Shown here: piece after piece, positions 15,778 to 48,960 of the stretch | Position numbering within the stretch: the stretch's first letter is position 1 | Layout of the letters: every line of letters starts with the position of its first letter | Source of the DNA: Gammaproteobacteria bacterium | GTDB taxonomy: Bacteria > Pseudomonadota > Gammaproteobacteria > Steroidobacterales > Woeseiaceae | Assembly: GCA_029863125.1 (NCBI GenBank) | Contig: JAOTWB010000001.1 | Location: forward strand, 79,605-143,604 | Direction of reading: 5' to 3' | Length of the DNA: 64,000 nt | Made by a program: the position numbers and the translations under genes | The notes under the pieces: generated by a model | What the model was told of the DNA's origin: nothing | Seen by the model: only the letters and a program-made list of their open reading frames with translations | Databases searched by the model: none

Positions 15778-15782
15778 TATTC

Positions 15783-17399
15783 TTAGTCATCCCCGAAATT
15801 CTCCGGTACCGTGTTCCGCCGCTTGAGATCGGACAGTATCTCCCGTGCCGCATTTGCCCCCGGGGCCGCCATGACGCCGCCGCCCGGATGAGTGCTCGAT
15901 CCACACAGGTACAGCCCGTCTACCGGACCACGGTACTGTGCATAGCCCGGCACCGGCCGATTGAACAACAGCTGATCCATCGTCAATTCGCCGTGGAATA
16001 TGTTGCCCTCAGTGATTCCGATCTCCGCCTCGATATCCTGCGGGGTCCTGATTTCGACGTGCAGAATCAGGTCTTTGAAATCGGGGCTGTACCGGGCTAT
16101 CTGGTCGATGACGGTCGCGCCAAATGCATCCCTTTCTTCACTTGTCCAGGCGCGGCCTTCGACCTGGTACGGACAGTACTGAACGAAGCAGCTCATGAAG
16201 TGTTTCCCGGGCGGCGCCATGGTCGGGTCATTCAGTGTCGGAATCAGCATATCGACGTAAGGGTCTCTGGACCATGTGCCGTCCTTCCAGTCGTCGTAAG
16301 CGCGCTCCATGCGTTCCATCGAATCGATGAAGTGCATATCGCTGTGATACAGCGAACTGCCCTCCGGCAGCGCCGGGAAAGTCGGCAGACCATCGAGTGC
16401 GATGTTCAGTTTTCCCGACGAACCGCGAATCTTGAAATTCTCAACGCGCTTGTAGAACGACTCCGGCAGGTCATCCTTGTCCATGCAGTTAAGGAACGTC
16501 CGCTTGACGTCCATGGCGGAGACGACCACCGGTGCCGAGATCTCATCGCCATTTTCAAGCGCGACGCCGGCTGTCTTACCGTTCTTCACGATTATCCGGT
16601 CGACGCCCGCTTCGGTTCGCAGCTCGCCTCCAGCCGCCTGAAAAGCACCCGCGATGGAATTTGATACCGCGCCCATGCCGCCGCGCGCGAAACCCCAGGA
16701 ACCGACGTTGCCGTCCACTTCGCCCATGTAATGATGCAGCAACACGTAGGCGGTGCCCGGTGAATGAATACCCAGGGCCGTACCGATGATGCCGCTGCCG
16801 GAAAACGCCGCCTTGATAACGTCCGTTTCGAAATACTCGTCCAGGTACTCCGCGACACTCATGGTCCAGAAACGGATGGTTTCGTACATGCGATCTTCAC
16901 CCATGTCGAGGAACTTGCCGCCGATCCTTATGAGCTCTTTTATATCGCTGGGTTTGAACGACGTCGGGTCAGGCGCGGTGCTGAGCAGGAAATCGCGAAT
17001 GAATCGACATTGCCGCATGGTGTCGGCCGAATAGGTCTTGTACGCGTCGGCATCGTGCCGGGAAAACCGGGCCATTTCACGGTAGGACACCTCCGCATCC
17101 TGGTAGGAACCGTAGTAATCGCCGTTTTCCATGAACGTCACGGAACCGCCGTAGGGCGTTACCTGGAGTCCGTGCTTGTGAAGCTCCAGCGCCCGGTAGA
17201 TTTCCGGTCGCAGCAGGCTGCACACATAAGAACAGTTTGAATACCACCAGTCCTTGTAAAGATTTCGGCTGACCGCCGCACCGCCGATGTAGTCATTCTT
17301 CTCGACACAAACGACATCCAGACCGGCTCTGGCGAGGAATGCGGCGTTCGTTAGCCCGTTGTGACCCGCACCAACGACAATCGCGTCATAGGTTTTCAT
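15783..17399 (-). CDS. NAD(P)/FAD-dependent oxidoreductase, phytoene-desaturase (CrtI)-like family (paralogue of the downstream gene)
   Basis: N-terminus YDAIVVGAGHNGLTNAAFLARAG and C-terminal DGLYLCGSSTHPGGGVMAAPG. Its start overlaps the upstream stop as ATGA. Confidence 0.8.
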   Translation of the reverse strand: MKTYDAIVVGAGHNGLTNAAFLARAGLDVVCVEKNDYIGGAAVSRNLYKDWWYSNCSYVCSLLRPEIYRALELHKHGLQVTPYGGSVTFMENGDYYGSYQDAEVSYREMARFSRHDADAYKTYSADTMRQCRFIRDFLLSTAPDPTSFKPSDIKELIRIGGKFLDMGEDRMYETIRFWTMSVAEYLDEYFETDVIKAAFSGSGIIGTALGIHSPGTAYVLLHHYMGEVDGNVGSWGFARGGMGAVSNSIAGAFQAAGGELRTEAGVDRIIVKNGKTAGVALENGDEISAPVVVSAMDVKRTFLNCMDKDDLPESFYKRVENFKIRGSSGKLNIALDGLPTFPALPEGSSLYHSDMHFIDSMERMERAYDDWKDGTWSRDPYVDMLIPTLNDPTMAPPGKHFMSCFVQYCPYQVEGRAWTSEERDAFGATVIDQIARYSPDFKDLILHVEIRTPQDIEAEIGITEGNIFHGELTMDQLLFNRPVPGYAQYRGPVDGLYLCGSSTHPGGGVMAAPGANAAREILSDLKRRNTVPENFGDD

Positions 17400-26932: not shown

Positions 26933-27598
26933 ATGGGGAAACGCATGGTAGAGACTGCTCTCATTGGGCCATTGGCCGGACACGCTGAGTTTGACTCGTT
27001 GATCGCGAGACTTGCCGACGAATACGACGCCGATAAAGCCGAGGTGATACGCGCGCAGATTATCGACCAGTTTGCTGTTGAAGGCACCGTGTTCATATCG
27101 GACATGGCGAGCTTTTCCAGTACATCCCGAAAGCGCGGCGTATGCCATTTCCTGAAGTTGATTCATCGCGCCAGGCAAATAATTGCTCCAATCATCGCTG
27201 CTAACAACGGCAGATTACTTAAATGCGAGGCCGACAACTGCTATGCCTTCTTCAAAACGCCGGACGAGGCTATCCGGGCGAGCTTCGACATCAATGCAGC
27301 ACTGTTTGAATCGAATCGCGCATTTGAACTCGACGAGCATATTTTTCTGTCAGTGGGTATCGACTACGGCCGTGTATTACTCGTTGGCGACAAGGACTTT
27401 TTCGGGGATCCGGTAAATACCGCTTCGAAGCTCGGCGAAGATCTCGCCATCCACGCCGAGACCCTGGTAACCAAGCGCGCGCTCGAACACTCCAATTTTC
27501 GGGTCCCGGAGCTCGCCGAACGCATGGTGGCGCGAATATCAGATATAGAGATCAAGTACGTTCGACTCCCGATGACCGCAGAAACGGAGAGCTACTGA
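26933..27598 (+). CDS. stand-alone class-III adenylate/guanylate cyclase-homology domain protein
   Basis: 221 aa. Metal-Asp regions are VFISDMASFS and LKCEADNCYAFF. The text SVGIDYGRVLLVGDKDFFGDPVNTASKLGE matches the cyclase transition-state/dimer region. Confidence 0.7.
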   Translation: MGKRMVETALIGPLAGHAEFDSLIARLADEYDADKAEVIRAQIIDQFAVEGTVFISDMASFSSTSRKRGVCHFLKLIHRARQIIAPIIAANNGRLLKCEADNCYAFFKTPDEAIRASFDINAALFESNRAFELDEHIFLSVGIDYGRVLLVGDKDFFGDPVNTASKLGEDLAIHAETLVTKRALEHSNFRVPELAERMVARISDIEIKYVRLPMTAETESY

Positions 27599-27601
27599 TA
27601 C

Positions 27602-28858
27602 ATGGCCCAGGGTATCGACGACACGCAGGCGCTGCGGCAGATCCTCGAGGTCACGCGCAAGCTGGCTGCGCCTTTCGATCTCGATACGATGCTCGCCGAG
27701 GTTGTCGATGCCTCCCGCAAGGTGCTCAATGCCGACAGAGGCACTGTCTTTCTTTACGACAGCGAAGCCGACGAGCTCGTAGTGCGCGTCGGTACGGGGC
27801 TGGAGCAAATCCGTATCCCGGCCGATAAAGGCATCGTCGGCGAATCCGCGCAGACGCGAAAGCTCATTAACGTACCGGACTGTTACGCAGACGATCGCTT
27901 CAACCGTGACATAGACAGGCAATCTGGCTATCGCTCGCGTTGCATGTTGACCATCCCGTTGATTGGTTACGAAGACTCCCTCGTTGGTGTACTGCAGATA
28001 CTCAACAAGAAAAACGGCGTTTTCGACGACAAGGACGAATTCGTAGCCCAGGCGCTCGCCGCGCAGGCCGCCGTGGTACTGCATCGCGCCGCTGTCACGG
28101 AACAGATCATTGAGTCCGAACGCCTGGACCGGGAAATTACGGTCGCCCGCGACGTTCAAATGGGCACCTTGCCCAAGAGAATGCCGGAGATCAGGGGCTA
28201 CGAGTTTGGCGGCGCATTTGCACCGACCGACCAAACCGGGGGCGACCTTTACGATTTTGTGCCTCTCGACGACGAGCGCTTGTTCCTGTTGATGGGTGAC
28301 GCAACCGGGCATGGTATCGGTCCGGCGCTTAGTGCCACACAGGTTCGCGCCATGCTACGCGTAGCCATCCGGCTGAACTCGAGCCTCGATGACGCTTTTG
28401 TGCAAATCAATAATCAGCTCTGCGAGGACCTGCCCGACGACCGTTTTGTCACGGGGTTCTTCGGCCTGCTGGACGCAACGACCAACACGATAACGTTTCA
28501 CTCGGGCGGCCAGGGCCCAATCATGCACTTCCATGCACGACGCAATGAATACGACTGGCACGAAGCAACGACATTCCCATTAGGCTATATGCCGCAAACC
28601 GATCTGCATCAGGCAGTCGTCAAGACGCTGGAGCCAGGCGACGTGCTCGGCCTGATTTCCGATGGCATCTATGAGTATGAAAACGAATCCGGCCTGCAGT
28701 TCGGCCAGCAGGGTGTCATCAACATCATTGACAACAATCCTGACGCAAGTGCTCAGGAACTCGTGAATTTGATCATGCACGGCGCCAGGAAACACGGCGG
28801 CTCCGCCCCGCAGGCCGACGACATTACCATCGTGCTCGCGCGACGGCTTCCGGAGTAA
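27602..28858 (+). CDS. GAF domain + PP2C (SpoIIE/RsbU-type) serine phosphatase
   Basis: N-terminal GAF-like region of about 160 aa (LNADRGTVFLYD...GIVGESAQT...). PP2C motifs are GGDLYDF, MGDATGHGIGPAL, ISDGIYE and DDITIVL. Confidence 0.85.
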   Translation: MAQGIDDTQALRQILEVTRKLAAPFDLDTMLAEVVDASRKVLNADRGTVFLYDSEADELVVRVGTGLEQIRIPADKGIVGESAQTRKLINVPDCYADDRFNRDIDRQSGYRSRCMLTIPLIGYEDSLVGVLQILNKKNGVFDDKDEFVAQALAAQAAVVLHRAAVTEQIIESERLDREITVARDVQMGTLPKRMPEIRGYEFGGAFAPTDQTGGDLYDFVPLDDERLFLLMGDATGHGIGPALSATQVRAMLRVAIRLNSSLDDAFVQINNQLCEDLPDDRFVTGFFGLLDATTNTITFHSGGQGPIMHFHARRNEYDWHEATTFPLGYMPQTDLHQAVVKTLEPGDVLGLISDGIYEYENESGLQFGQQGVINIIDNNPDASAQELVNLIMHGARKHGGSAPQADDITIVLARRLPE

Positions 28859-28873
28859 CGCGTCCCGAACAAA

Positions 28874-29275
28874 ATGCACAGACAGTTCGCCAGAGATTAC
28901 GATTCCCTCGCCGCCATTTATGAGTTCGCGGAAGAGATTCTTGCGGCGAACGAGATTGGTGAGGCCGTCCGTTTCCCGGTACACCTCGCAATGGAAGAAC
29001 TGTTTACCAACATGGTGAAATACAGCCCGGATACCGACGGTGACATCGGCGTCGATGTTGTGGTTGAGGGAGGCGCTGTAACGGTTACGCTGACCGAAGA
29101 TGATGTCGATGAATTCGACGTCACCCGGCCCAGCGGTGCCGATACTACCTCCCCGCTTGCGGAGCGAACGCCCGGTGGACTCGGTCTACACCTGCTGCAC
29201 AATATCGTCGATAAACTCGAGTACGACTACCATAACCGACGAAGTAGAGTAATATTTACCAAGGAGTCAGGATAA
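28874..29275 (+). CDS. RsbW/SpoIIAB-type anti-sigma factor serine kinase (HATPase_c)
   Basis: 133 aa. N-box is MEELFTNMVKY and the G-box is TPGGLGLHLLHNIVD. Confidence 0.8.
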   Translation: MHRQFARDYDSLAAIYEFAEEILAANEIGEAVRFPVHLAMEELFTNMVKYSPDTDGDIGVDVVVEGGAVTVTLTEDDVDEFDVTRPSGADTTSPLAERTPGGLGLHLLHNIVDKLEYDYHNRRSRVIFTKESG

Positions 29276-29279
29276 CAAT

Positions 29280-29576
29280 ATGTTCGAAATCGACTACGGC
29301 GACGACGGGAAGATCAAGTGCAGCGGGCGATTGGACGCCTCGCAATGCGAAAAAGCACAGTCGTTCATGGACGACATCGCCGATACCCGGACACTGGATT
29401 TTTCCGGACTGGAATATATCTCCAGCGCCGGTCTGGGTATACTGCTAAAGACGCAGAAACGGCTGGCCGAGAGTGGCGCAGCGTTAAAAATAACCAACGT
29501 CAACAATCACATATACGACGTATTCCGCTATTCTGGCTTCAACGCCATTTTCGACATTAAAGCAAAAGAACAATAA
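29280..29576 (+). CDS. STAS-domain anti-sigma-factor antagonist (RsbV/SpoIIAA-like)
   Basis: 98 aa. Phospho-Ser context is LEYISSAGLGILL. AGGAG-like RBS. It starts 4 nt after the kinase gene. Confidence 0.8.
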   Translation: MFEIDYGDDGKIKCSGRLDASQCEKAQSFMDDIADTRTLDFSGLEYISSAGLGILLKTQKRLAESGAALKITNVNNHIYDVFRYSGFNAIFDIKAKEQ

Positions 29577-29621
29577 GTCGAATCTCGTCTTGACCAACTT
29601 TTTGCCGGGTCAGTTGTACGT

Positions 29622-30161
29622 ATGAGTAAGACAGACGATACAAACTTGATTGAGCGGTGTATTGGCGGTGACCGCAAGGCCTTTGAGATCTTGTTGGTGC
29701 AATACGAGAGACCCGTGTTTAACGCAGCGTTTCGCATGCTTGGCAGCAGGGATGACGCAATGGACGTCACCCAGACGGTTTTTCTAAAAGTTTTTGAGAA
29801 CATCGATCAGTATGACCCATCGCGCCGTTTTTTCAGCTGGATCTACCGAATCACGTTGAACGAGTCGATCAACTGGCTCGGCAAGGCGAAACGGTTACAG
29901 CCGCTGAAAAGTGAAGTGGTAGATGATGGCAAGAGTCTCGAACAGGAAATCGACAGTGCAAATCTCTCAAAGGACGTACAGGCAGCACTAATGGCCATCA
30001 ACCCCGACCAGAGAACCGTAATTGTTTTGAAGCATATCCTGGGATGCAGTTACGGCGAGATCGGAGAGATTCTCGAGATCCCTGAAAAAACAGTTAAATC
30101 GCGTCTTTATTCGGCGAGACAGCAGCTAAAAGACGTTCTGACAAGGACCGGCGCATATTAA
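29622..30161 (+). CDS. ECF (sigma-70 group 4) RNA polymerase sigma factor
   Basis: 179 aa. Region 2 is FEILLVQYERPVFNAAFRMLGSRDDAMDVTQTVFLKVF...FFSWIYRITLN. Region 4 is RTVIVLKHILGCSYGEIGEILEIPEKTVKSRLYSARQQL. Confidence 0.9.
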   Translation: MSKTDDTNLIERCIGGDRKAFEILLVQYERPVFNAAFRMLGSRDDAMDVTQTVFLKVFENIDQYDPSRRFFSWIYRITLNESINWLGKAKRLQPLKSEVVDDGKSLEQEIDSANLSKDVQAALMAINPDQRTVIVLKHILGCSYGEIGEILEIPEKTVKSRLYSARQQLKDVLTRTGAY

Positions 30162-30922
30162 TGGCTATTCTGCAAAAGTATCTGGACCTGATCAACGCCG
30201 ACATCGACGGTGAAATCGGCGACAGCGATCGGGCCGAATTACAGGCTTTCCTGGCCGAAAGTGCCCAGGGCCGCGCTCTACATCAAGAGCTTGCCTTGCT
30301 GTGTTCGACGCTCGATGACGTCGATACAATTGACCCGCCACCGCACATGCGGCACATGATCATGAACGCCGTGAAACCCATCCGGGCGATCCCCCAGTCC
30401 CAGGGCTACCTCAAAAAGCTATTCGCGATGCCGGCTCTGACGCACGCCATCACTTTTGCAGTGGGTGTTGTCCTTACGTTGAGCCTGCTGAGCTCCGGGC
30501 AGATTTCAACCCGGGCCTTCGACGATGTCACGGGACTCGTTGGTACGATCGCCGAACCCATCAGTGTCGGCGTTTCCAGCGCTGTGTCATTCGACAAGCC
30601 CGAAGTCGCAGGCAAAGTGTCACTGCGCCGCTCCGGCGCCATGCTCATCCTGGACATGGACCTCGTAGCCACAGCGCCCATCGAGATAGAGGCCGACTAC
30701 ACGGACAGAACGATCTGGTTTAACGGTTTTGCGCAGCTCGAGAGCACTGGCACCAGGATCTCGACCGAGACTGGCCGTGTAAGACTGGGCATAGAGGGCA
30801 AACGGCGCTTTGCCGTTTACCTGCAGAACAAGGCCGAAAGGGACACTACGATCAATTTGCGTTTTTTAGTGGATGGGAAAGTCGTGCACGAAGCGAACCT
30901 CGACTACACGCCCACCCGGTAG
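30161..30922 (+). CDS. putative single-pass membrane anti-sigma factor
   Basis: TAATG overlap with the sigma gene. It has a roughly 75-aa cytoplasmic helical N-terminus, one TM (AITFAVGVVLTLSLL) and a periplasmic domain of about 140 aa. No HxxxCxxC zinc motif is present. The call rests on position and topology only. Confidence 0.6.
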   Translation: MAILQKYLDLINADIDGEIGDSDRAELQAFLAESAQGRALHQELALLCSTLDDVDTIDPPPHMRHMIMNAVKPIRAIPQSQGYLKKLFAMPALTHAITFAVGVVLTLSLLSSGQISTRAFDDVTGLVGTIAEPISVGVSSAVSFDKPEVAGKVSLRRSGAMLILDMDLVATAPIEIEADYTDRTIWFNGFAQLESTGTRISTETGRVRLGIEGKRRFAVYLQNKAERDTTINLRFLVDGKVVHEANLDYTPTR

Positions 30923-31045
30923 GGTCCATGAAATGGTCTGCTTTTCAGGCAATTACGAATGGACACCAACCTTTTCATGCCTGGGATGTATTACCAGGTA
31001 GAACAGACAGTGAATAGCCCCGATGGGGCCAAAGGGGAAGACGAC

Positions 31046-32404
31046 ATGGCAACGAGTAACAAGGCAATTCCGCTAATCCTGGTCGGCGTTGCAGCACTCG
31101 CCGTAATAGCTTACTTCGGAATGAAATATCCGCCGGGCGGTGATGATGTTGCCGGTACGGTAGCTCCGGCCGAGCGCTATCGTGCAGAGCAGCCGGGCGC
31201 GGATGATATTGCACTCGGCGATACGGAGATTCAAAGCCTGTTGCAGACCGACTACATCGATCGGCTTATTCGCGACGATGATTTCGTCAAGTTAATGGGC
31301 AACGCCGCGTTTTCAGCAGCGCTCGGCAACGCCGATTTCGCAAGGGCTCTGGGTAATGCGGATTTCGCAAGAGCATTGGGTAACGCGGATTTCGCGAGAT
31401 CGTTGGGCAGTGCCGATTTCTCACGCGCTATCGGCAACGCCGATTTTTCAAGAGCCCTGGGTAACGCAGATTTCGCCAGAGCACTCGGCAATGCCGATTT
31501 CGCGCGCGCTCTCGGCAACGCAGACTTCGCAAAAGCCCTGGGTAGCGCAGACTTCTTGAGAGCACTCGGTAATGCTGACTTCTCGCGCGCACTAGGCAAC
31601 GCGGACTTTTCGAGAGCACTCGGTAACGCCGACTTTTCGAGAACGATCGGCAACGCGGACTTTTCGAGAGCACTCGGAAATGCCGATTTTGTGAGAGCAA
31701 TGGGCAACGCAGACTTTGCCAGAGCAATGGGCAATGCAGACTTTGTGCGGGCCCTGGGCAGTGCCGACTTTGTCCGGGCATTGGGAAGTGCGGACTTTGC
31801 AGCCGCGAGGGCGAATGCCGACTTTAACCGCGCAATGGGTAACGCGGACTTTGCGCGAGCCATGGATAACGCGGACTTTGCGCGAGCCCTGGGTAATGCG
31901 GACTTTGCGCGGGCTATGGGTAATGCGGACTTTGCGCGGGCTGTGGGTAACGCGGATTTTGCACGGGCTATGGGCAATGCAGACTTTGCGCGGGCTTTGG
32001 GTAGTGCAGACTTTGCGCGGGCTTTGGGTAGTGCAGACTTTGCCAGGGCTATCGGTAATGCCGACTTCTCACGTGCGCTCGGCAACGCAGACTTTGCCAG
32101 GGCTATCGGTAATGCCGACTTTGCCAGAGCACTCGGCAACGCAGACTTTGCACGAGCACTCGGTAACGCAGACTTTGCACGAGCACTCGGCAACGCAGAC
32201 TTTGCACGAGCACTCGGTAACGCAGACTTTGCACGAGCACTCGGTAACGCAGACTTTGCACGAGCACTCGGTAACGCAGATTTTGCAAGAGCGCTCGGTA
32301 ACGCAGACTTTGCACGAGCACTCGGTAATGCTCAGTTTGCGAGGGCTTTGGGTAATGCGCAATTCACGAACGCCCTAGCCAACCGTCAGTTTGCACGGGA
32401 GTAA
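31046..32404 (+). CDS. membrane-anchored nonapeptide-repeat protein (about 41 x GNADFARAL)
   Basis: The ATG at 31046 lies 7 nt after GGGGA (track start 30959 is also possible). One TM, AIPLILVGVAALAVIAYFGM, is followed by a short linker and then 368 aa of uninterrupted 9-aa repeats up to the stop codon. Confidence 0.75.
   Translation: MATSNKAIPLILVGVAALAVIAYFGMKYPPGGDDVAGTVAPAERYRAEQPGADDIALGDTEIQSLLQTDYIDRLIRDDDFVKLMGNAAFSAALGNADFARALGNADFARALGNADFARSLGSADFSRAIGNADFSRALGNADFARALGNADFARALGNADFAKALGSADFLRALGNADFSRALGNADFSRALGNADFSRTIGNADFSRALGNADFVRAMGNADFARAMGNADFVRALGSADFVRALGSADFAAARANADFNRAMGNADFARAMDNADFARALGNADFARAMGNADFARAVGNADFARAMGNADFARALGSADFARALGSADFARAIGNADFSRALGNADFARAIGNADFARALGNADFARALGNADFARALGNADFARALGNADFARALGNADFARALGNADFARALGNADFARALGNAQFARALGNAQFTNALANRQFARE
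31298..32401 (+). repeat. in-frame 27-nt tandem repeat array, 40 full units + 1 truncated
   Basis: I checked the unit register by hand. Unit 1 starts at 31298, unit 31 at 32108, and units 32-38 (32135..32323) are almost identical at the DNA level. The 5' units carry many synonymous differences. Confidence 0.95.
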
Positions 32405-32497
32405 ACGCCACAGAGGCCAAACTAGACAAAGACCAGAAGCACAATCGGGAATTCGGAAAATAACAAAAATAGCCTAAGGGCCTAGGCAAACAAGGAC

Positions 32498-32537
32498 AAT
32501 ACTGCGAACGGGGCCGTTCGCAGTATTTGTTCTTTTT
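32498..32537 (+). terminator. rho-independent terminator after the repeat-protein gene
   Basis: 13-bp perfect stem AATACTGCGAACG / CGTTCGCAGTATT with loop GGGC, followed by TGTTCTTTTT. Confidence 0.85.
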
Positions 32538-32563
32538 GCGCATGTCATTGGGGGAAACAGGAC

Positions 32564-35533
32564 ATGCAAGAATCAATACCTCAACGCGTGCTGGCAATAC
32601 TGCTGCTCGGCTCGACGCAGCTGGCCAGCGCGGCCGAACTGGGCGAACTCGAAACCCAGGATTTCAGGCTGCTCTACTTCGACACGACACAGACTTATCT
32701 AACACCTCACGTCACAATAGGCTTTCACAATTCACTCGAGCGCCAGCGCTCAATCTTCGGATACGACCCTGACGAACGAACTACGGTTCTGTTGAAAGAT
32801 TTCTCTGACTACGCGAATGCGGCTGCCGGCGCTATACCTAGAAATACTGTGCAAGTGGACGTATCGCCGATGAGTTTCGCATTCGAAACGATGCCGGTGG
32901 GTGAGCGAATGACCACCATCATGAATCACGAGCTGGTGCATGTGGCGATGATGGATCAGCCTAATAGTAGCGATCGTCGCTACCGGCGCTTCTTTGGCGG
33001 CAAAGTTTCACCCGTTTCGGAACACCCGGAGACTATGTTCTATTCCTATTTGACTAACCCGCGCGTCTGGACGCCGGGCTGGTTCCTGGAGGGCAGTGCA
33101 ACTTTTCTGGAGACCTGGCTGTCGGGTGGGCTCGGCCGCGCCCTCGGCGCATACGACGAAATGGTATTTCGCGCGATGGTTCGCGACGGCGCACATTTCT
33201 ATGACCCTCTAGGACTCGTTGCAGAAGGAACAAAGGTCGACTTTCAAGTAGGCATCAATAGCTATCTTTACGGTACGCGTTTTATGAGTTATCTCGCCTA
33301 CACGTATACGCCGGAAATGCTTATTCAATGGATAGGACGTCACGATGGCAGCGAGCGCAATTACCGGTCACAGTTCCAGAAAGTTTTTGGAATTCGGCTC
33401 GTGGACGCTTGGCAGAACTGGATCGATTGGGAGCATGAATTTCAGACAAATAATCTGGAATCCGTGCGGCAATACGAAATTACGCACCACGAAGACATTA
33501 CTGATCAATCTCTTGGTTCTATATCGCGGGCGTATTTTGATCCAGAATCGAGGACGCTTTACGCGGCATTTAGATACCCGGGCGTCGTGGCGCATATCGG
33601 TGCATTGTCAGTTGACGACGGTTCGATCGAAAAGATCGTGGACATCAAGGGCCCGATGATCTTCCGGGTTTCGTCGCTGGCATACGATGCCGACTCGAAC
33701 ACGATTTACTACACGACCGACAACTACGCGCATCGTGATCTCGTATCGCTAGACATCAGGACGGGCAAGACCCGTATCCTGCAGAAGGACGCTCGAATCG
33801 GCGAGCTCGTGTACAACAAAGCCGACAATTCGATTTGGGGCGTGCGGCATTTGAATGGGCTGGCGACTCTCGTCCGAATCCCGTATCCCTACGACGAGTG
33901 GAATCAGATTCATACTTTCGACTATGGGCAGGTACTTTATGATTTAGACATTTCTCCAGATGGCAAACTAGTCTCGACCTCGATGGGCCAAGTTGACGGC
34001 GGACAGTCTGTTCGCGTAATGAATACCGAAGCTCTTTTGACGGGAGATACTACGCCAGTGGCCGAATTTGACGTTGGTCGAGCCGTACCGGAGGGCTTTG
34101 TCTTCTCCACCGATGGTCGATTTCTCTACGGCAGCTCTTACTACACGGGTGTATCCAACATCTGGCGATACGAACTCGATAGCGAGCGTCTTGAGATCGT
34201 AAGCAATACCGAGACGGGTTTTTTCCGACCGATACCGTTGGCAGACGGGTCGCTCATCGTTCTCCGCTATACGGGCACAGGTTTCATACCCACAATTATC
34301 GATCCCAAACCTTTGGAAGACGTAAATCCAATTACGTTTCTTGGTCAGCAAGTCGTCGTCAAGCACCCGCAAATTGGCGAATGGCAGGTGCGCGCGCCCA
34401 ACGAAGTATCTCTGGATGAGCTGGTTGAATCGGAGGGACACTACACACCCATTGCCAATCTGGGATTGGAGTCTTTTTATCCGATTGTTGAAGGTTACAA
34501 GGACTCGTACGCGCTGGGTCTCAATGTGAGCTTTTCCGACCCGATCATGTTTGACACTCTGAACATTAAGGCTTCGTACAGCCTTGATAGCGATCTACCC
34601 AGCAACGAGCTTATGCATGCAAGCATTGACTATCGGCACGTTGTTGCCGACGCAACTGCGCTCTCGGGCGTCTGGTCTGTCGGATTTCGACACAACTATG
34701 CCGATTTTTACGACCTCGCGGGCCCGACGGAACGCAGTCGCAAAGGCAATCGATTTTCCGTTGGTTACGAAAAGTCATTGATCTACGACGAACCCAGACT
34801 GTTGGATCTTTCGGCAGAACTCAATCACTACACAAACCTGGATAGTCTGCCACGCTACCAAAATGTGCCCGCATCGCTTGATGAATTGTCGACCTTGAGC
34901 GTCGATCTTAACTATTCGAATCGGCGCAGATCCCTGGGGGCCGTTGATTACGAAAAAGGATTCAACTGGCGGCTGGCGACGACAGTAGATCATGTAGACG
35001 GCGATACGATTCCCAAGGTCGTCGCGGGCTTCGATTTTGGGCTTGCCTTGCCGTGGAAACATTCATCCATCTGGTTACGTAATTCAGCTGGTGCAGCATT
35101 CGGCGAGCCGGACGATGAATTCGCGAACTTCTTTTTCGGCGGATTCGGCAATAACTATGTTGATCGCGGCTCGATCAAGCGCTATCGGGAGTTTTATGCG
35201 ATGCCCGGCTTTGAACTTAACCAAGTACCGGGTCGGAATTTTCACCGCGCCATGCTCGAGTGGAACCTTCCACCGATACGATTCAAGCGTGTCGGCACCC
35301 CGGGCTTTTATTTGAGCTGGGCACGGCCCGCAGTGTTCGTTAGCGCATTGACGACGAACCTCGACGACGCCTCGATTCGACAGGAGGTACAAAGCGCCGG
35401 CGTGCAAATCGACTTCAGGTTTACAGTACTCTCTCGCATGAATATGACCTTGTCGTTCGGTTATGCCGAAGGGTTCGGTGGAGACACTGTCGCCGATGAC
35501 AACGAGTTCATGGTGTCACTCAAAATACTGTAG
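32564..35533 (+). CDS. secreted 989-aa protein: gluzincin-like HExxH domain + beta-propeller-like repeats + C-terminal Omp85-like beta-barrel (tentative)
   Basis: Signal peptide MQESIPQRVLAILLLGSTQLASA. Motifs IMNHELVHVAMMD and the downstream WFLEGSATFLE. PD40/TolB-like strands are DISPDGKLVSTS and FSTDGRFLYGSS. The C-terminal third has alternating beta-strand text with FFGGFGNNYVDRGSIKRY. The domain assignments come from motif recall only. Confidence 0.55.
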   Translation: MQESIPQRVLAILLLGSTQLASAAELGELETQDFRLLYFDTTQTYLTPHVTIGFHNSLERQRSIFGYDPDERTTVLLKDFSDYANAAAGAIPRNTVQVDVSPMSFAFETMPVGERMTTIMNHELVHVAMMDQPNSSDRRYRRFFGGKVSPVSEHPETMFYSYLTNPRVWTPGWFLEGSATFLETWLSGGLGRALGAYDEMVFRAMVRDGAHFYDPLGLVAEGTKVDFQVGINSYLYGTRFMSYLAYTYTPEMLIQWIGRHDGSERNYRSQFQKVFGIRLVDAWQNWIDWEHEFQTNNLESVRQYEITHHEDITDQSLGSISRAYFDPESRTLYAAFRYPGVVAHIGALSVDDGSIEKIVDIKGPMIFRVSSLAYDADSNTIYYTTDNYAHRDLVSLDIRTGKTRILQKDARIGELVYNKADNSIWGVRHLNGLATLVRIPYPYDEWNQIHTFDYGQVLYDLDISPDGKLVSTSMGQVDGGQSVRVMNTEALLTGDTTPVAEFDVGRAVPEGFVFSTDGRFLYGSSYYTGVSNIWRYELDSERLEIVSNTETGFFRPIPLADGSLIVLRYTGTGFIPTIIDPKPLEDVNPITFLGQQVVVKHPQIGEWQVRAPNEVSLDELVESEGHYTPIANLGLESFYPIVEGYKDSYALGLNVSFSDPIMFDTLNIKASYSLDSDLPSNELMHASIDYRHVVADATALSGVWSVGFRHNYADFYDLAGPTERSRKGNRFSVGYEKSLIYDEPRLLDLSAELNHYTNLDSLPRYQNVPASLDELSTLSVDLNYSNRRRSLGAVDYEKGFNWRLATTVDHVDGDTIPKVVAGFDFGLALPWKHSSIWLRNSAGAAFGEPDDEFANFFFGGFGNNYVDRGSIKRYREFYAMPGFELNQVPGRNFHRAMLEWNLPPIRFKRVGTPGFYLSWARPAVFVSALTTNLDDASIRQEVQSAGVQIDFRFTVLSRMNMTLSFGYAEGFGGDTVADDNEFMVSLKIL

Positions 35534-35571
35534 TCTGGCAGCGAGCCCATACCGGACGACCCAAAGCAAGG

Positions 35572-36585
35572 ATGATCGGAGACTTCTTTTTACACGCCCT
35601 GCTCGGTCTGCTCCCTGTCTGCTGCTTTCTGGCAGCACTCATGTATCTCGACAGCTACAAACTGATACCAATGCGCTGGATTCTCGGCACGATCGCGCTT
35701 GGCTGTGGCACCGCTATCGTCAGTTACCCCTTAAACATCATCGGACTCGAGTGGCTCGACATCGGGTTCGTCACGTTTTCTCGCTATGCCGCCCCGGTCG
35801 TTGAAGAGGCACTAAAAGCACTGGTAATAATCATGTTGGTGCGTCGCAATCGCATCGGCTTTCTCGTCGATGCCGCGATCTTCGGTTTCGCAGTGGGTAC
35901 CGGATTCGCGATATTCGAGAATTTGTTCTATCTACAGGCGCTTCCCGACACGAAACTGGGCACCTGGATCGTGCGGGGCTTCGGCACCGCATTCATGCAC
36001 GGTGGTACCACAGCTATTTTCGCTATCGTGTCGCACACGCTCGCAGGGCAGAAGCTGACCAGGGGCCGAGCCGTGTATATACCGGGGTTCGTTATCGCCG
36101 TCATTGTGCATTCGGTCTTCAATCACTTTTTCTTTGCACCGATCGTCAACACGCTGTTGATACTGGTCTCGCTGCCAATTTTGCTTGCGGTCGTATTTCA
36201 GCAAAGCGAAAAATCAGTATCGGAATGGCTTGGCATGGGATTCGATGCCGATGCCGAGCTGCTCGAACTCATCAACTCGGGCGAGCTGTCAACTTCCAAG
36301 GTCGGTAAGTACCTGCATTCGCTCAAGGAGAAGTTCGAGGGTCCTGTCGTTGTCGATCTCTTGTGCTACCTGCGTTTACATGCCGAACTTTCAATGCGGG
36401 CCAAAGGTCTTCTCATGATGCGCGAGTCCGGATTTGCCAATAAAACCGGCGAGGAAACCAAGGCGAAACTCGAGGAACTCAAGTTCCTCGAGTCCAGTAT
36501 TGGTCCTACCGGTTTATTGGCGATGAAGCCATTTCTCGAGATGAGCCAGAAAGACCTGTGGCAGCTCTACATGCTGTCAAACTGA
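35572..36585 (+). CDS. PrsW-family intramembrane metalloprotease with cytoplasmic C-terminal extension
   Basis: PrsW signatures are VVEEALKAL (EExxK), GTGFAIFENLFY, GTAFMHGGTTAIF and VHSVFNHFFF. The soluble tail of about 130 aa begins at SEKSVSEW. Confidence 0.75.
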   Translation: MIGDFFLHALLGLLPVCCFLAALMYLDSYKLIPMRWILGTIALGCGTAIVSYPLNIIGLEWLDIGFVTFSRYAAPVVEEALKALVIIMLVRRNRIGFLVDAAIFGFAVGTGFAIFENLFYLQALPDTKLGTWIVRGFGTAFMHGGTTAIFAIVSHTLAGQKLTRGRAVYIPGFVIAVIVHSVFNHFFFAPIVNTLLILVSLPILLAVVFQQSEKSVSEWLGMGFDADAELLELINSGELSTSKVGKYLHSLKEKFEGPVVVDLLCYLRLHAELSMRAKGLLMMRESGFANKTGEETKAKLEELKFLESSIGPTGLLAMKPFLEMSQKDLWQLYMLSN

Positions 36586-45036: not shown

Positions 45037-47166
45037 CTACACGTTCAGTTCAGGCCGGGATGATAGCAATGTTCCCCTGTGCAGCCACAGAACCTCGTGC
45101 GCGGCCTGCAGCACCTGGTCGCTGTGGGTGATTACGATCCGGGTTGCCTCAAGCCGGGAAACAGAATCCACGACACGTTTCTCCAGGCAAGCGTCGAGGC
45201 CGCTGGTCGCCTCATCCAACAACAATATTTTGGGTGAGCGATAAAAGGCGCGCGCGAGCAGGACGCGCTGTATTTGCCCCTTGGACAGTGACGAGCCCAG
45301 GTCGCAGACACGCGTTTCATAGGCCATTGGCAGCGATTCGATTTCTGCATCGATGCACGCTCGTTCCGCAGCCTGCCGAATTCGCCCGAAATCCACGTTG
45401 CCTTCGAACAGCGCGATATTCTGAGCAATAGAGCCTTTTAACAGGCAGTCTTCCTGAAACACGGTCGCCATTTCCGTGCGCAGGCTGCGCGTGCCCCAGT
45501 CCTTGACCGCCATTCCTCCCACCAGCACTTCGCCGACGGCCAGCGGCTCTACGCCGGCGATAAGCCTGAGGAGCGTACTTTTGCCCGATCCCGAGCAGCC
45601 GGCAATGGCCGTGAAGCCATTCACCGGGATGCGGCACGAGCAGTCTTTGAGAACCCACGAATCGTTGGCCGCATAGCGAAACGCAACGTTCCTCAACTCG
45701 ATTTCAAGAACGGCGTCGGAAGGCGCTTTCCTGCCGCAGCCGTCGTGCTCCTCGTCATTGAAGACGATATCCGCCAGCCTGTTCAGGGGCACGTCGAGTA
45801 GCCGGTACTCGATCACCCGATCAACGATGCCGCCAGCTCGCGACATGAACATCCCGAGGTAGGCGACAAAAGCAGAGATCATGCCGATACTCATGCGACC
45901 GTCCAGGCCTCGTCGAGCAAGCAGGTAAACAACCGCGACGCGAAGTCCCTGAAACAGCAGTTGGCCAAACGCGCTGTCGACAATCAGGACATTACCGGCC
46001 CTGATTTTTTGGTTAAGGCCGTTGGCAAACAGGTTTCGCCATTCCGACTGCCTCGCCGCCCCGCCGTTTGCCATCTTGATCGTTTGCACGGCGCGCAACG
46101 TCTCCAGGAAGTGCGTCTGCACGGAGGATTCGGAGAGCGAGATATCGTTGGATAGCCGAAGCCTGAGCGGCAGCAAGGACGCACGCCACAGACTCCAGAC
46201 AATTACGGCGACGATGGCAAGAGCCGTGAGACCTGGCTCGTACATGGCCATCAGTCCTGTGATCAACACGATGAACAACACGTCGAGCACCAATGCTGGC
46301 GCCGAATACACGATGAAATCCTGTACTCGCCTGAGAGACTGGATGCGATGCTGCACGTCGCCAAGGTCGCGGCTCCGAAAGTAGTCCAGCGGCAAACGCA
46401 GCAGCTTGTGCAGTACCCGGGCCGTCAGGTCGAATACGGAAACCTGGCTGAGATACTGAAAAGTCAGCTGCCGCATCGAGTTGGCAACTACCTGAAACAC
46501 GAGCAGCACGCCAAAACCAACGGCCAGGACGTTCAGCAACAGGTAGTCGCCTTTGCCGAGGACCTGATCGATCACGGTCTGGAGATAGAAAGGAGAAGCC
46601 AGGACAAGCAATTCGCAGATCAATGCAAGCGCCAGTCCGGCTGACAGTTTGCTGACGATACCCCTGTCCAAAGACATCATTGCGCCCAGCGTGAGCTTTG
46701 GCGACCGACGGCCTTTCCTGAAATGAGGGCCTCGCGATATTTCCAGCGCGATGCCGGTGAATGCCTCTTCTGCACGTTTGTAAGAATCTTTTACGAGCCC
46801 GCGCGCCGGATCATGAATGACGAGATGGTCGCTACGAGCCGCTTTCAACACGACGAAATGATTGAAACCCCAGTGCAGCAAGCACGGCGTTCGCAGGCGG
46901 CGTAACTCTGACACGCGACACGTCACTGCGCGCGTCGATAGTCGAAGTGCGTCACAGATTGCCGTGATGTTCCTCAGCGTGGCGCCTTTCAGGGACGTCG
47001 GATGCTGTCGCCGAAGTGCTACGAGGTCGACACCGGCCCCGAGGTAGTTTGCGATCATTGCAATACAGGTCAACCCGCACTCGGTCGCTGTGGTTTGTCG
47101 GATGATCGGAAGCCGAGGCGTTCCACTCATTCGCAGATAGGGCCGCCTGGGGGTTTCGGCACGCAC
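45037..47166 (-). CDS. peptidase-C39-domain ABC transporter (bacteriocin/peptide exporter, CvaB-like)
   Basis: C39 residues are QTTATECGLTCIAMIANYLG (Gln and Cys) and NHFVVL...IHDP (His). There are six TM helices. Walker A GCSGSGKST, signature LSKGQIQRVLLARAF, Walker B ILLLDEATSGLD. The start is the GTG at 47166 abutting the HlyD stop; the ATG at 47130 is an alternative. Confidence 0.85.
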   Translation of the reverse strand: MRAETPRRPYLRMSGTPRLPIIRQTTATECGLTCIAMIANYLGAGVDLVALRRQHPTSLKGATLRNITAICDALRLSTRAVTCRVSELRRLRTPCLLHWGFNHFVVLKAARSDHLVIHDPARGLVKDSYKRAEEAFTGIALEISRGPHFRKGRRSPKLTLGAMMSLDRGIVSKLSAGLALALICELLVLASPFYLQTVIDQVLGKGDYLLLNVLAVGFGVLLVFQVVANSMRQLTFQYLSQVSVFDLTARVLHKLLRLPLDYFRSRDLGDVQHRIQSLRRVQDFIVYSAPALVLDVLFIVLITGLMAMYEPGLTALAIVAVIVWSLWRASLLPLRLRLSNDISLSESSVQTHFLETLRAVQTIKMANGGAARQSEWRNLFANGLNQKIRAGNVLIVDSAFGQLLFQGLRVAVVYLLARRGLDGRMSIGMISAFVAYLGMFMSRAGGIVDRVIEYRLLDVPLNRLADIVFNDEEHDGCGRKAPSDAVLEIELRNVAFRYAANDSWVLKDCSCRIPVNGFTAIAGCSGSGKSTLLRLIAGVEPLAVGEVLVGGMAVKDWGTRSLRTEMATVFQEDCLLKGSIAQNIALFEGNVDFGRIRQAAERACIDAEIESLPMAYETRVCDLGSSLSKGQIQRVLLARAFYRSPKILLLDEATSGLDACLEKRVVDSVSRLEATRIVITHSDQVLQAAHEVLWLHRGTLLSSRPELNV

Positions 47167-48471
47167 CTACGCAGCATCTCGTTGCCGGAGCCTGAGTGGC
47201 TCGAGCAGCCAGTCGAGCAGGCTTCGGCTTTCGAGAATGATCTCGGCAGCGAGCAGCATCCCTGGCCTCAGGGGCGCATTGCCCGACTTTAAAACAACAA
47301 AGTCACTGTCGATCGCGATGTGCACCTTGAATGTCGCCTCTCGCAAAAGAAAGGTCTGGGGTACCTCTGATGGCATCAGGATGAATTCGGAGACGCTTTG
47401 CACTTTGCCGGCAAACGTCCCGAACTGTTGCAGCGGGAACGCATCGTACATCAGCCGTGCACGCTGTCCAGGCCTGATGAATCCGATCGCACTGGAAGGA
47501 ACGAACACTTCGGCAACCATTGTCATGTTCTCAGGGAGAACGGTTGCCAGCAGCTGGTTTGGCAATACGGCGTTACCCTCATGAATCTCGAGAGATGCCA
47601 GCCTTCCGCTAATCGGTGACTTGAGCACAACGCGTCGCGTGGATTCCTGTTCGGTAATTTCCTGCAGCAGCTGCGACCGCTGTGACATCAGGCTGGAAAT
47701 CAAACGCTCGGTTTCGACAGGCAGGCTCCGGTCCCGTGCCATTAATTCCTCACGCTCACGCTCGAGCGCCATTTCGCTTTGCTGCATTGCGCCGAACGCC
47801 TGCTTCAGAACGATTCGTTCATCTTCCTGGCGCAACACTTCCCACTGGGTCGCAGCACCGTTCCGGGCGGCCGACTTGAGCAGCGTCAGCTTCTCCCGCG
47901 CCGAAGTGAGCCGCCGCTGCTGCTCGATCATCTGGCGCGACAGAGCGCCACGCTCCTGCTCCAGGCCCTGCAGCTGGGTCGCAACGGCGTCGCGCTCGAT
48001 GGCGGCTTGGGCCCGGACCAGCGCAGCCTGCCGATCGAGCGCCGCGACCTGCTGCCTGAGCTCCAGCAGCATTTCATCGCTCGAACTGCGGCCGTCCTCG
48101 AGAAACGTGTCTCGCGACAGGTAAATGACTGGGTCGCCAGCGCGAACCGACTCGCCCGGTTTCGTTGCGATGCTGTCGACGATGCCGGCAACGTTATGCG
48201 TGATGCGCGCTACGCCATCGCGCGAGACCAGCCAGCCACGGATGGTTTCTTTGCGGGCATACTCGGCCGTCGCCAGGAACAGTGCGGCGATAGCCGCAAA
48301 CACAACGATGAGGCCACTCAACCATATCCACGGTTTCGGCATGACGGAGATCGGCCTGCCGAACGGGCGCTTCGATAAAGCGCTGATCGCCTTTCGTCGA
48401 AATAGCGTTTCTGAATAGAGCCTTGTCACGCCTCTATTCGTAGGGCAGCCGGGGCCTGACTGCAAAGTCAA
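47167..48471 (-). CDS. HlyD-family membrane fusion/secretion protein (CvaA-like)
   Basis: N-terminal LFRRKAISALSKRPFG is followed by a TM, a long coiled coil and a C-terminal beta domain. The start is uncertain: the track start is a TTG at 48471, and an in-frame GTG lies 14 codons downstream. Confidence 0.8.
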   Translation of the reverse strand: MTLQSGPGCPTNRGVTRLYSETLFRRKAISALSKRPFGRPISVMPKPWIWLSGLIVVFAAIAALFLATAEYARKETIRGWLVSRDGVARITHNVAGIVDSIATKPGESVRAGDPVIYLSRDTFLEDGRSSSDEMLLELRQQVAALDRQAALVRAQAAIERDAVATQLQGLEQERGALSRQMIEQQRRLTSAREKLTLLKSAARNGAATQWEVLRQEDERIVLKQAFGAMQQSEMALEREREELMARDRSLPVETERLISSLMSQRSQLLQEITEQESTRRVVLKSPISGRLASLEIHEGNAVLPNQLLATVLPENMTMVAEVFVPSSAIGFIRPGQRARLMYDAFPLQQFGTFAGKVQSVSEFILMPSEVPQTFLLREATFKVHIAIDSDFVVLKSGNAPLRPGMLLAAEIILESRSLLDWLLEPLRLRQRDAA

Positions 48472-48545
48472 TTAACGCGCTAAAAACCCAGAAAGTGTGA
48501 GCGCATCGTTCTCTCGCCGTTCAACGAGACGCTTCTTCCGCCCGA

Positions 48546-48959
48546 TCACTCTCCACCCGTCGGATCATCGATGAAGCGCTGGCGAAGCTCATCACCCGGT
48601 ATCCAGCATTCGGCTTTCTTGCCAAACCACTTGTACCGCCGGTTGCCAATGAAGTCGTAAACCGGGTCGGCAATGAACTTTGGCACCCAGAAAAATGCGT
48701 AGTAGAGCAGCGGCCACGCGCCATCCAGTCGCCTGACGATCTGCAGCGCGGCACGCGATTTCCTATACAGCGTGTCATCGATGATCAGCAGCACCGAGCT
48801 CAGATCGTCAAAGACGTATTGATGACTAGCGAGCAGTTCCTGCGCCGCGGCCGACTGCAGGGACGCGAAGCGAAACTGCTTGTTCGTGTCCCGGCGAACA
48901 ACGAAATGGACCGTGCTTTCGCACAGGTTGCATACACCGTCGAACAGGATAATGGGCAT
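48546..48959 (-). CDS. DCC-family (DUF393) thiol-disulfide oxidoreductase
   Basis: MPIILFDGVCNLCESTVHFVVRRD contains the CxxC motif. The ATG at 48959 lies 1 nt after the upstream stop. Confidence 0.75.
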   Translation of the reverse strand: MPIILFDGVCNLCESTVHFVVRRDTNKQFRFASLQSAAAQELLASHQYVFDDLSSVLLIIDDTLYRKSRAALQIVRRLDGAWPLLYYAFFWVPKFIADPVYDFIGNRRYKWFGKKAECWIPGDELRQRFIDDPTGGE

Positions 48960-48960
48960 A

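Follow-up and report, generated by a model that had tools for sequence, protein, structure and literature searches.

Recurrent clustering of a SigW-like ECF sigma factor with a partner switch, a PrsW-family protease and a predicted outer-membrane protein in at least six bacterial lineages

Results

Gene content of the locus

A block of nine genes, here g1 to g9, was analysed in a 64,000-nt stretch of DNA (the window) from a gammaproteobacterial genome of the family Woeseiaceae (assembly GCA_029863125.1, contig JAOTWB010000001.1, positions 79,605 to 143,604). An earlier reading of the window (the original prediction) had proposed that these genes join a partner switch to an extracytoplasmic function (ECF) sigma factor, its membrane anti-sigma factor, a repeat protein, a large envelope protein and a PrsW-type protease. 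We find that the genes recur together, in rearranged form, in at least six bacterial lineages, and that they constitute an undescribed signalling unit. Open reading frame (ORF) calling placed all nine genes on the + strand, spanning 26933-36585, with intergenic gaps from g1 to g9 of 3, 15, 4, 45, -1, 123, 159 and 38 nt when the g7 start is taken at ATG 31046. The gene coordinates and common direction first proposed match these calls exactly, the gaps correspond, and the domain assignments agree with the results from Pfam, NCBIfam and structure models. The block is bordered by a Rieske oxygenase gene and a di-haem cytochrome c peroxidase gene, both on the opposite strand. An Rfam search of the whole window gave zero matches. 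The features of the block, with the basis of each assignment in brackets, are as follows.

26933..27598, + strand: g1, small class III (CHD) cyclase-like protein of 221 residues (PF00211, PDB cyclases)
27602..28858, + strand: g2, GAF-PP2C (SpoIIE-type) serine phosphatase (Pfam)
28874..29275, + strand: g3, RsbW/SpoIIAB-like HATPase_c_2 protein of 133 residues (Pfam, PDB)
29280..29576, + strand: g4, single-domain STAS protein of the anti-sigma-antagonist type (NCBIfam)
29594..29618, + strand: ECF-type promoter-like motif CCAACTTT-N13-TGTA, ending 3 nt 5′ of the g5 ATG
29622..30161, + strand: g5, ECF (group 4) sigma factor, SigW-like (Pfam, NCBIfam, PDB)
30161..30922, + strand: g6, membrane anti-sigma candidate (weak match to NF052375, transmembrane prediction)
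30966..30990, + strand: second promoter-like motif CCAACCTT-N13-TGTA, 55 nt 5′ of the g7 start
31046..32404, + strand (ORF open from 30959): g7, bitopic inner-membrane nonapeptide-repeat protein (sequence, transmembrane prediction)
32498..32527, + strand: 13-bp stem-loop with T-run, terminator- or attenuator-like, between g7 and g8 (-25.7 kcal/mol)
32564..35533, + strand: g8, secreted protein of 989 residues, predicted to lie in the outer membrane (AlphaFold2, Foldseek)
35572..36585, + strand: g9, PrsW-family intramembrane protease with seven transmembrane helices (PF13367)

Conservation of the cluster across lineages

Conservation was assessed in 105 loci from the Woeseiaceae, the Acidobacteriota and a Gemmatimonadota-type group, 25 of them from a genome scan with g8 and 80 from a metagenome scan with a Gemmatimonadaceae homologue. 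Components were mapped with tblastn and counted only where the flank was long enough. PrsW was present in 75/75 such loci, the ECF sigma factor in 59/59, the STAS protein in 42/42, the RsbW-like protein in 42 of 43, and the PP2C phosphatase in all 21. A lack of conservation elsewhere had been named beforehand as refuting the original prediction; the block clearly recurs in several phyla. It is this recurrence, not strand bias alone, that indicates a grouping beyond chance. The cyclase gene is a Woeseiaceae-only accessory, found in 11/11 loci of that family and in 0/22 of the others.

Within the Woeseiaceae, the full nine-gene order is collinear. Conservation there proves little by itself, because the flanks are syntenic too. 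Outside this family, the genes flanking the clusters are unrelated, and the order differs. In the Acidobacteriota, PP2C(-) STAS(-) RsbW(-) are divergent from ECF(+) anti-sigma/repeat(+) OMP(+) PrsW(+), where OMP denotes the g8-type outer-membrane protein. In the Gemmatimonadota-type loci, STAS(-) RsbW(-) are divergent from ECF(+) anti-sigma/repeat(+) OMP(+) PrsW(+) REC-PP2C(+).

Ten further neighbourhoods were chosen through aligned distant relatives of g8, at 26-37% identity. The clusters of KSB1, Thermoanaerobaculia and loci L111 and L112 hold the sigma pair, a g7-type protein, the outer-membrane protein, PrsW, an RsbW-like domain and a STAS protein, with an RND pump inserted between the outer-membrane protein and the switch genes in L112. 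No PP2C gene was seen adjoining the KSB1 or Thermoanaerobaculia clusters. Two Bacteroidetes loci (L109, L113) hold the sigma factor, anti-sigma factor, g7-type protein, outer-membrane protein and PrsW, with no switch nearby. The Bacteroidales locus L106 holds PrsW, a g7-type protein, a sensor kinase, REC-PP2C, the outer-membrane protein, RsbW and STAS, with no ECF sigma factor, and L110 holds the g7-type protein, outer-membrane protein and PrsW only. PrsW comes first in the gene order in some Bacteroidales and in L112.

Since these distant neighbourhoods keep a core while the sigma pair and the switch come and go, the system is modular. Its core consists of the g7-type protein, the outer-membrane protein and PrsW, to which a sigma pair is usually joined and a partner switch often. 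The core is the older part, with the sigma pair and the partner switch as separable add-ons. The original prediction had treated the repeat protein and the 989-residue protein as inputs or outputs. Instead, together with PrsW, they form the most widely conserved part of the system.

The repeat protein and the anti-sigma factor

The likely start of g7, ATG 31046, has a Shine-Dalgarno sequence (AGGGGA) and lies 3′ of a promoter-like motif. The protein consists of a transmembrane helix, a conserved juxtamembrane G-T-[IV] segment and 41 in-register GNADFARAL nonapeptides, encoded from about position 31298. The repeat DNA has a 27-nt period with zero indels and units that are about 71-78% identical, and the 41 nonapeptides (31298-32404) are encoded by 35 distinct 27-nt units. 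Codon differences between units are 70% synonymous, with 4068 at the third codon position against 1405 and 686 at the first two. Because the differences are mostly synonymous and fall in the third position, the repeats are old and under selection at the peptide level. The absence of indels from the 27-nt units and their mostly synonymous divergence ruled out a slippage artefact. Across the Woeseiaceae, the space between the genes flanking the repeat gene varies from about 1408 to 1777 nt, so repeat copy number probably varies within the family. The Acidobacteriota repeat protein shows an 18-residue super-repeat.

Single-ORF fusions tie the repeat protein to the anti-sigma factor. They were found in the Acidobacteriota (L014 7243-9807; L016) and in Gemmatimonadota-type loci (L036, L038, L054, L087, L042), and comprise, in order, an anti-sigma-like N-domain, a transmembrane helix, the conserved juxtamembrane segment and long nonapeptide repeats. 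The first element is homologous to the N-domain of g6 in the window and the last three to g7. Fused in this way to an anti-sigma domain, the repeat protein is the anti-sigma ectodomain in those two phyla, and the reading of it as an input or output in the original prediction does not stand. The non-fused lineages, like the window, have distinct g6-type and g7-type genes.

The g7-type proteins always keep the transmembrane helix and a juxtamembrane segment resembling GT[IV]G...Q.[ST]..D[IV].L, and distally they are either repetitive or helical with low complexity. At a similar position, g6-type and g7-type proteins both have a periplasmic G-[TS]-[IVM] motif, which may be a common recognition or cleavage site. 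In nearly all lineages, including KSB1, Thermoanaerobaculia, Bacteroidetes, L106 and L110, the g7-type gene comes before that of the outer-membrane protein. These proteins are without an assigned family, and searches of Pfam with isolated sub-domains of g6, g7 and g9 gave no matches.

The sigma factor and its putative membrane partner

Pfam searches identified Sigma70_r2 (E = 2e-15) and r4_2 (E = 1e-14) in g5; region 3 was not detected in the same search. A score of 107.8 against TIGR02937 (cutoff 42.9) places the protein among the ECF sigma factors. The top NCBIfam family was SigW, with 115.6 against a cutoff of 209 and 103.3 against 243 (NF007223 and TIGR02948, respectively). By these profile scores SigW is the closest family, but g5 is not a SigW equivalog. 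The closest solved relative is likewise SigW (5wuq, E = 1e-25).

The start of g6 overlaps the stop of g5 (ATGA). The predicted architecture is an N-terminal anti-sigma-like domain, a transmembrane helix at residues 92-110 and a periplasmic domain of about 140 residues, and is also found in KSB1, Thermoanaerobaculia and Bacteroidetes. The match to the anti-sigma model NF052375 was weak (21.5 bits, cutoff 100), and no Pfam family matched. The zinc-binding anti-sigma motif HxxxCxxC is absent from the g6 N-terminus, which sets the protein outside the zinc-binding anti-sigma class. The fused anti-sigma proteins begin with a region homologous to the N-terminal part of g6.

The predicted outer-membrane protein and the PrsW-family protease

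No Pfam family covers g8. The AlphaFold2 model (predicted local distance difference test (pLDDT) 71.8, predicted TM-score 0.61) comprises a signal peptide, a helical N-domain with HExxH, a TolB-like propeller (residues 309-580) and, at the C-terminus, a barrel with about 16 strands. Foldseek matched the propeller to TolB at an E of about 1e-8. The barrel gave a weak match to Omp85_2 (E = 2e-3, 17.8 against a cutoff of 23.1) and Foldseek similarity to BamAP (9n2e). With a score below cutoff, no POTRA domain, and a 16-strand barrel that comes from the model only, g8 does not qualify for the Omp85 superfamily. Residues H122, E123, H126 and E176 (HExxH...E) are invariant across three phyla. Distant relatives approach Peptidase_MA_2 below threshold (25.1 against 32.4), in a region that the g8 model covers with low confidence. 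When PDB sequences were searched with the family profile, only the propeller gave matches, and neither the HExxH domain nor the barrel found a counterpart. At least 5777 proteins, falling into 2783 clusters at 50% identity, belong to the family, and every one is labelled hypothetical. Database records include proteins identical to g8 and g9 from a Gammaproteobacteria metagenome-assembled genome, and the nearest relatives come from Woeseiaceae genomes of the same kind.

For g9, a score of 78.8 bits against PF13367 (cutoff 23.5) establishes membership of the PrsW family. In Bacillus subtilis, RsiW, which is the anti-sigma factor of SigW, has PrsW as its site-1 protease (PMC12943098, PMC3498285). 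All four catalytic motifs of the family (EExxK, FxxxE, H and HxxxD/N; PMC12943098) could be read from g9, as EEALK, FAIFE, H and HSVFN. Against NF033739, the B. subtilis PrsW equivalog, the score was 29.6 (cutoff 225), which places g9 outside that equivalog. A C-terminal cytoplasmic helical domain of about 125 residues, at positions 213-337, is conserved across phyla. In the AlphaFold2 model (overall pLDDT 65, from a shallow alignment at 75-91% identity) this tail is helical with low confidence, at pLDDT 40-64. Foldseek found nothing below E 0.28 for the tail, and APH-1-like similarity for the transmembrane part only.

The partner switch and the cyclase-like protein

The g2 phosphatase matches PF07228 over profile positions 1-191 of 192 (E = 2e-38, 132.6 bits), which assigns it to the PP2C/SpoIIE family, and carries a GAF domain (Pfam E = 5e-19). 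The input domains of its orthologues differ by lineage: STAS-FHA-GAF in the Acidobacteriota, REC in Gemmatimonadota-type loci and GAF in the window. In L111, the phosphatase is present as a GAF-PP2C-kinase fusion. In the Gemmatimonadota-type loci (L036-L105, e.g. L055 6940-8711, L059, L060), the REC-PP2C gene lies directly 3′ of PrsW, with an overlap of often about 18 nt. A second RsbW/STAS pair stands between PrsW and PP2C in L030, L044, L046 and L049.

The top PDB matches of g3 (64.3 bits against PF13581) are SpoIIAB and RsbW. The N-box Glu and Asn (E42, N46) and the GGLG lid are conserved. The G1 box, DxGxG in the family, is degenerate (TEDDVDEF) and variable among orthologues, which makes kinase activity plausible but not assured. 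A score of 56.1 against TIGR00377 (cutoff 53.45) places g4 among the STAS antagonists, and the Ser in its YISSAGLG motif aligns with the phosphorylated Ser of RsbV and SpoIIAA. In L106, a 756-residue STAS-TCAD9-APH (kinase-like) protein is encoded at 13525-15795, 3′ of the RsbW-STAS pair; it could be an alternative switch output.

The match of g1 to PF00211 is marginal (22.7 bits, cutoff 21.9). Searches of the PDB recovered the cyclases 3mr7 and Ma1120 (E = 6e-10 to 1e-7), and the alignment showed that both metal Asp residues, the Lys and the Asn are kept, with the transition-state Arg replaced by Lys. On these alignments g1 probably carries a genuine, if marginal, class III cyclase domain. 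The gene ends 3 nt 5′ of g2, and in the Woeseiaceae its product may be the source of a nucleotide ligand for the g2 GAF domain, with the reservation that the catalytic Arg is Lys.

Transcription signals

In three phyla, 55 loci have a motif CCAACYTT-N13-xGT(A/C), equivalent to AAC-N16-xGTA, directly 5′ of the sigma gene. It was also found at this place in KSB1, Thermoanaerobaculia, Bacteroidetes and L111, with slightly altered spacing in L112 and L113. The window contains two exact matches, against a chance mean of 0.17: these are the copies before g5 and g7. The second copy also occurs ahead of the g7 orthologue in L004, L017, L019, L108 and L111; in L108 and L111 it is followed by a 24-nt leader and a start codon with a Shine-Dalgarno sequence, an ordinary promoter geometry. 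In the window, the g7 leader (31000-31045) contains a small GC hairpin, GCCCCGATGGGGC, just 5′ of the Shine-Dalgarno sequence, and this is conserved in L004, L017 and L019.

The sigma gene is arranged differently. No Shine-Dalgarno sequence was found in its start region (window 29594-29624; L003, L007, L014-16, L036, L066, L107-L113), and in the Gemmatimonadota-type loci an in-frame TAA immediately precedes its TTG start. The missing Shine-Dalgarno sequence, with a -10-like element 1-4 nt from the start codon, suggests that the g5 transcript is leaderless or otherwise unusual. Two other readings of the motif were rejected. A sigma-54 promoter was ruled out because GG-N10-GC is missing in the Woeseiaceae and Acidobacteriota, and an RNA hairpin (CAAC...GTTG) because there is no complementarity in L020, L023, L024 and the Acidobacteriota. 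A simple sigma-70 promoter scan of the block gave fewer matches than shuffled sequence and was uninformative.

A hairpin of 12-18 bp, comparable in strength to that between g7 and g8, lies 3′ of the g7 or anti-sigma gene in 26/26 loci examined, from three phyla; the sequences differ and the structure is kept. Its probable role is that of a terminator or attenuator, fixing how much sigma and anti-sigma factor is made relative to g8 and g9. Promoter-like motifs stand ahead of g5 and of g7, and g7 is followed by the conserved hairpin, so the block is not one simple operon. These signals would divide it into three or more expression units, one comprising g1-g4, one comprising g5-g7 and dependent on the sigma factor, and one comprising g8-g9 on the far side of the attenuator or terminator. 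The block proposed as a unit is a conserved cluster, but the signals speak against one transcript covering all nine genes.

Other features of the window

On the - strand at 45037-50397, a C39-peptidase ABC exporter and an HlyD-type adaptor resemble a bacteriocin or peptide export pair and adjoin a 478-residue ORF without a Pfam match. A TonB-dependent receptor (7790-10834, + strand) and a 1099-residue Sortilin/BNR-repeat protein (60486-63785, - strand) are apparently unrelated to the cluster.

Discussion

A proposed route from the envelope to the sigma factor

We give about an even chance to the reading that the block is one conserved, envelope-spanning signalling system of three modules, in which the sigma factor is released by proteolysis and the partner switch supplies an added input. 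The first module, the old core, would consist of the inner-membrane protein g7, the outer-membrane-anchored protein g8 and the PrsW-type protease g9, with g8 presenting its HExxH metallopeptidase-like domain and TolB-like propeller to the periplasm. The second would be the SigW-like sigma factor g5 with the membrane anti-sigma factor g6. The third would be the serine-phosphorylation switch, comprising the phosphatase g2, the kinase-like g3 and the STAS protein g4, with a lineage-specific input domain. On some envelope cue, g8 and/or PrsW would cut the ectodomain or juxtamembrane region of g7 or g6 (the anti-sigma factor itself in the fused forms). The anti-sigma factor would then be degraded and the sigma factor freed, to drive CCAAC-N16-xGTA promoters before its own gene and before g7. 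The partner switch would act as a cytoplasmic input to the same pathway, with the sigma factor, the PrsW tail or another protein as candidate targets.

The original prediction had suggested two-layer gating of the sigma factor, by the switch and by PrsW. The conserved neighbourhood, the SigW-like sigma factor and the PrsW linkage in 75/75 loci favour that idea. It is weakened by the separability of switch and sigma pair, the former occurring without the latter in L106 and the latter without the former in L109 and L113. The partner switch clearly belongs to the system. What it acts on was also approached by distance-matrix (mirror-tree) correlation, a weak method that is confounded by linkage and shared ancestry. 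The top correlation was between the ECF sigma factor and the PrsW transmembrane domain (partial r 0.64-0.67), above the RsbW-STAS positive control (0.50-0.55). For RsbW, the values with the ECF sigma factor (0.34-0.43) and with the PrsW tail (0.36-0.38) were about equal.

Several points weigh against proteolytic release as set out here. The loci were retrieved through g8, so that co-occurrence is conditional on g8, and loci of the same lineage are not independent. Two distant members of the g8 family (P0390, L114) have no PrsW, sigma factor of this type or switch beside them. The N-terminal domain of g8 around HExxH is modelled at low confidence, and the substrate of g9 is not inferable by orthology because its score lies far below the equivalog cutoff. 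In every lineage the -10-like element ends just 1-4 nt before the sigma start codon, unlike normal promoter geometry. Signal transfer from g7 to g6 is assumed for the Woeseiaceae, in which the repeat protein is separate from the anti-sigma factor. The sequences show the components, their linkage, the fusions and the motifs; cleavage, binding and the kind of stimulus are inferred.

Alternative readings

The strict form of the original prediction would make g3 a second, cytoplasmic anti-sigma factor that binds g5 and is titrated by dephosphorylated g4, with PrsW independently starting the proteolysis of g6. This is possible, though on balance doubtful. The kinase-STAS-sigma gene order in the Woeseiaceae, KSB1, Thermoanaerobaculia and L111 mirrors that of the rsbV-rsbW-sigB and spoIIAA-AB-sigF operons, the closest solved relatives of g3 are the anti-sigma kinases SpoIIAB and RsbW, and the switch is linked to the sigma factor in 42/43 loci. 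The RsbW-ECF correlation also speaks for it, but is no higher than that with the PrsW tail. [quoted passage not shown] Because the switch and the sigma pair occur independently (the switch without an ECF sigma factor in L106, the sigma factor without a switch in L109 and L113), direct sequestration of g5 by g3 is one option only.

The Bordetella precedent offered for such a model is also weaker than implied. The btrU/V/W genes and the ECF sigma factor BtrS have indeed been studied together as regulators of type III secretion (PMC7498569). The switch, however, controls secretion post-transcriptionally; its proteins are not negative regulators, and it does not exert anti-sigma control of BtrS (PMC8256260). 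STAS/RsbW-type switches for ECF sigma factors are neither listed nor mentioned in the ECF reclassification (PMC7826278) or in a review of non-canonical ECF mechanisms (PMC8999054), and PrsW does not occur in the former.

Somewhat unlikely is the reading in which the switch targets a partner other than the sigma factor, either the cytoplasmic PrsW tail or g6 on its cytoplasmic side, such that phosphorylation licenses or blocks proteolysis. L106 retains the switch beside g8, PrsW and a g7-type protein even with the sigma factor missing, the REC-PP2C gene directly follows and often overlaps PrsW in Gemmatimonadota-type loci, and every lineage keeps the tail of about 125 residues. A review covers STAS proteins whose output is not a sigma factor (PMC8256260), and several Gram-negative systems use STAS as the output. 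The tail is also present, however, where no switch is nearby (L109, L110, L113), its fold is of low confidence and without a significant Foldseek match, and the correlation analysis does not favour it.

A more elaborate version, which we regard as unlikely, treats the repeat ectodomain as a consumable proteolytic fuse, trimmed by g8 until PrsW acts, with the partner switch licensing PrsW through its tail. If true, this would be the first partner switch to control regulated intramembrane proteolysis and the first described function of PrsW in diderms.

It is also unlikely that g7, g8 and g9 are outputs, forming an envelope-maintenance or peptide-processing machine whose expression is controlled by the sigma factor and the switch. 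The sigma-type motif directly 5′ of g7 in three lineages, the core trio without a sigma factor in L106 and L110, and the purifying selection on the repeats at the peptide level would fit such a role. Against this, the repeat domain and the anti-sigma domain share one polypeptide in two phyla, so that the former belongs there to the sensing, anti-sigma protein, and the conserved hairpin separates g7 from g8-g9, so that co-expression would not be simple. Regulators encoded within their own operons are, moreover, common for ECF sigma factors. That the modules are mere neighbours kept together by inherited synteny is very improbable: the Woeseiaceae flanks are syntenic too, but the components are found again, with different flanks, orders, strands and fusions, in Acidobacteriota, Gemmatimonadota-type loci, KSB1, Thermoanaerobaculia, Bacteroidales and others.

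Significance

ECF sigma pathways and partner switches are two main routes of bacterial stress sensing and are normally treated separately. The cluster ties them to two unannotated families, those of g8 and the g7-type proteins, in at least six lineages and in thousands of metagenomic sequences. The original prediction knew of no described system with this combination, and targeted literature searches (ECF with partner switch and PrsW, ECF with RsbU/V/W) turned up no description of the cluster. If proteolytic release of the sigma factor proves correct, it would represent a new way of ECF sigma activation in diderms, a role for PrsW outside the Firmicutes, and a function for a large hypothetical protein family with many members in bacteria of marine sediment and soil. 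Because the anti-sigma factor exists in fused and split forms and the promoter-like motif is conserved, the hypothesis can be tested directly.

Comparison with known systems

The closest likeness is to SigW/RsiW/PrsW (with RasP) of B. subtilis, which is matched in the sigma factor closest to SigW, the single-pass anti-sigma candidate with an N-terminal cytoplasmic domain, and the four-motif PrsW. The SigW promoter consensus is TGAAAC-N16-CGTA, which the cluster motif AAC-N16-xGTA resembles. In contrast to that system, the sigma factor and PrsW of the cluster fall below the NCBIfam equivalog cutoffs, PrsW has an extra cytoplasmic domain and is encoded within the cluster, the anti-sigma candidate is without the HxxxCxxC zinc motif, and there is no site-2 protease gene within the block. 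The cluster also belongs to diderms, and adds a predicted outer-membrane peptidase-like/propeller protein, a repeat ectodomain protein and a partner switch.

With RsbU/V/W and SpoIIE/SpoIIAA/SpoIIAB, the cluster has in common PP2C, HATPase_c_2 and a STAS protein with the conserved Ser, adjoining a sigma gene. Here, however, the sigma factor is of group 4 (ECF) rather than group 3 and has its own putative membrane anti-sigma factor, the G1 ATP-binding box of g3 is degenerate, and the switch occurs with the envelope core even where the sigma factor is missing. Bordetella BtrU/V/W, Vibrio SypE/SypA and Rhodobacter RbaV/W/Y are likewise diderm sets of STAS protein, kinase and phosphatase whose output is not a classical group 3 sigma factor (PMC8256260, PMC3999984), but they are unlinked to PrsW, an outer-membrane peptidase or a repeat anti-sigma factor.

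As to the envelope components, the propeller in the middle of g8 superposes on that of TolB, and the g8 barrel is weakly similar to Omp85_2 and BamAP. It differs from both TolB and Omp85 in that propeller, barrel and HExxH domain are fused, with neither the N-terminal domain of TolB nor POTRA. Cell-surface signalling of the FecA/FecR/FecI type joins an outer-membrane protein, an inner-membrane anti-sigma factor and an ECF sigma factor through proteolysis of the anti-sigma factor. The cluster follows the same logic, a predicted outer-membrane protein with a putative inner-membrane anti-sigma factor that has a periplasmic domain and an ECF sigma factor. Pfam found no Plug or TonB_dep_Rec domain in g8 and no FecR domain in g6 or g7, and the resemblance is one of function, not of membership. 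By analogy with these systems, the cluster would appear to work most like SigW/RsiW/PrsW combined with an RsbU/V/W-type switch, with the outer-membrane-to-sigma logic of cell-surface signalling.

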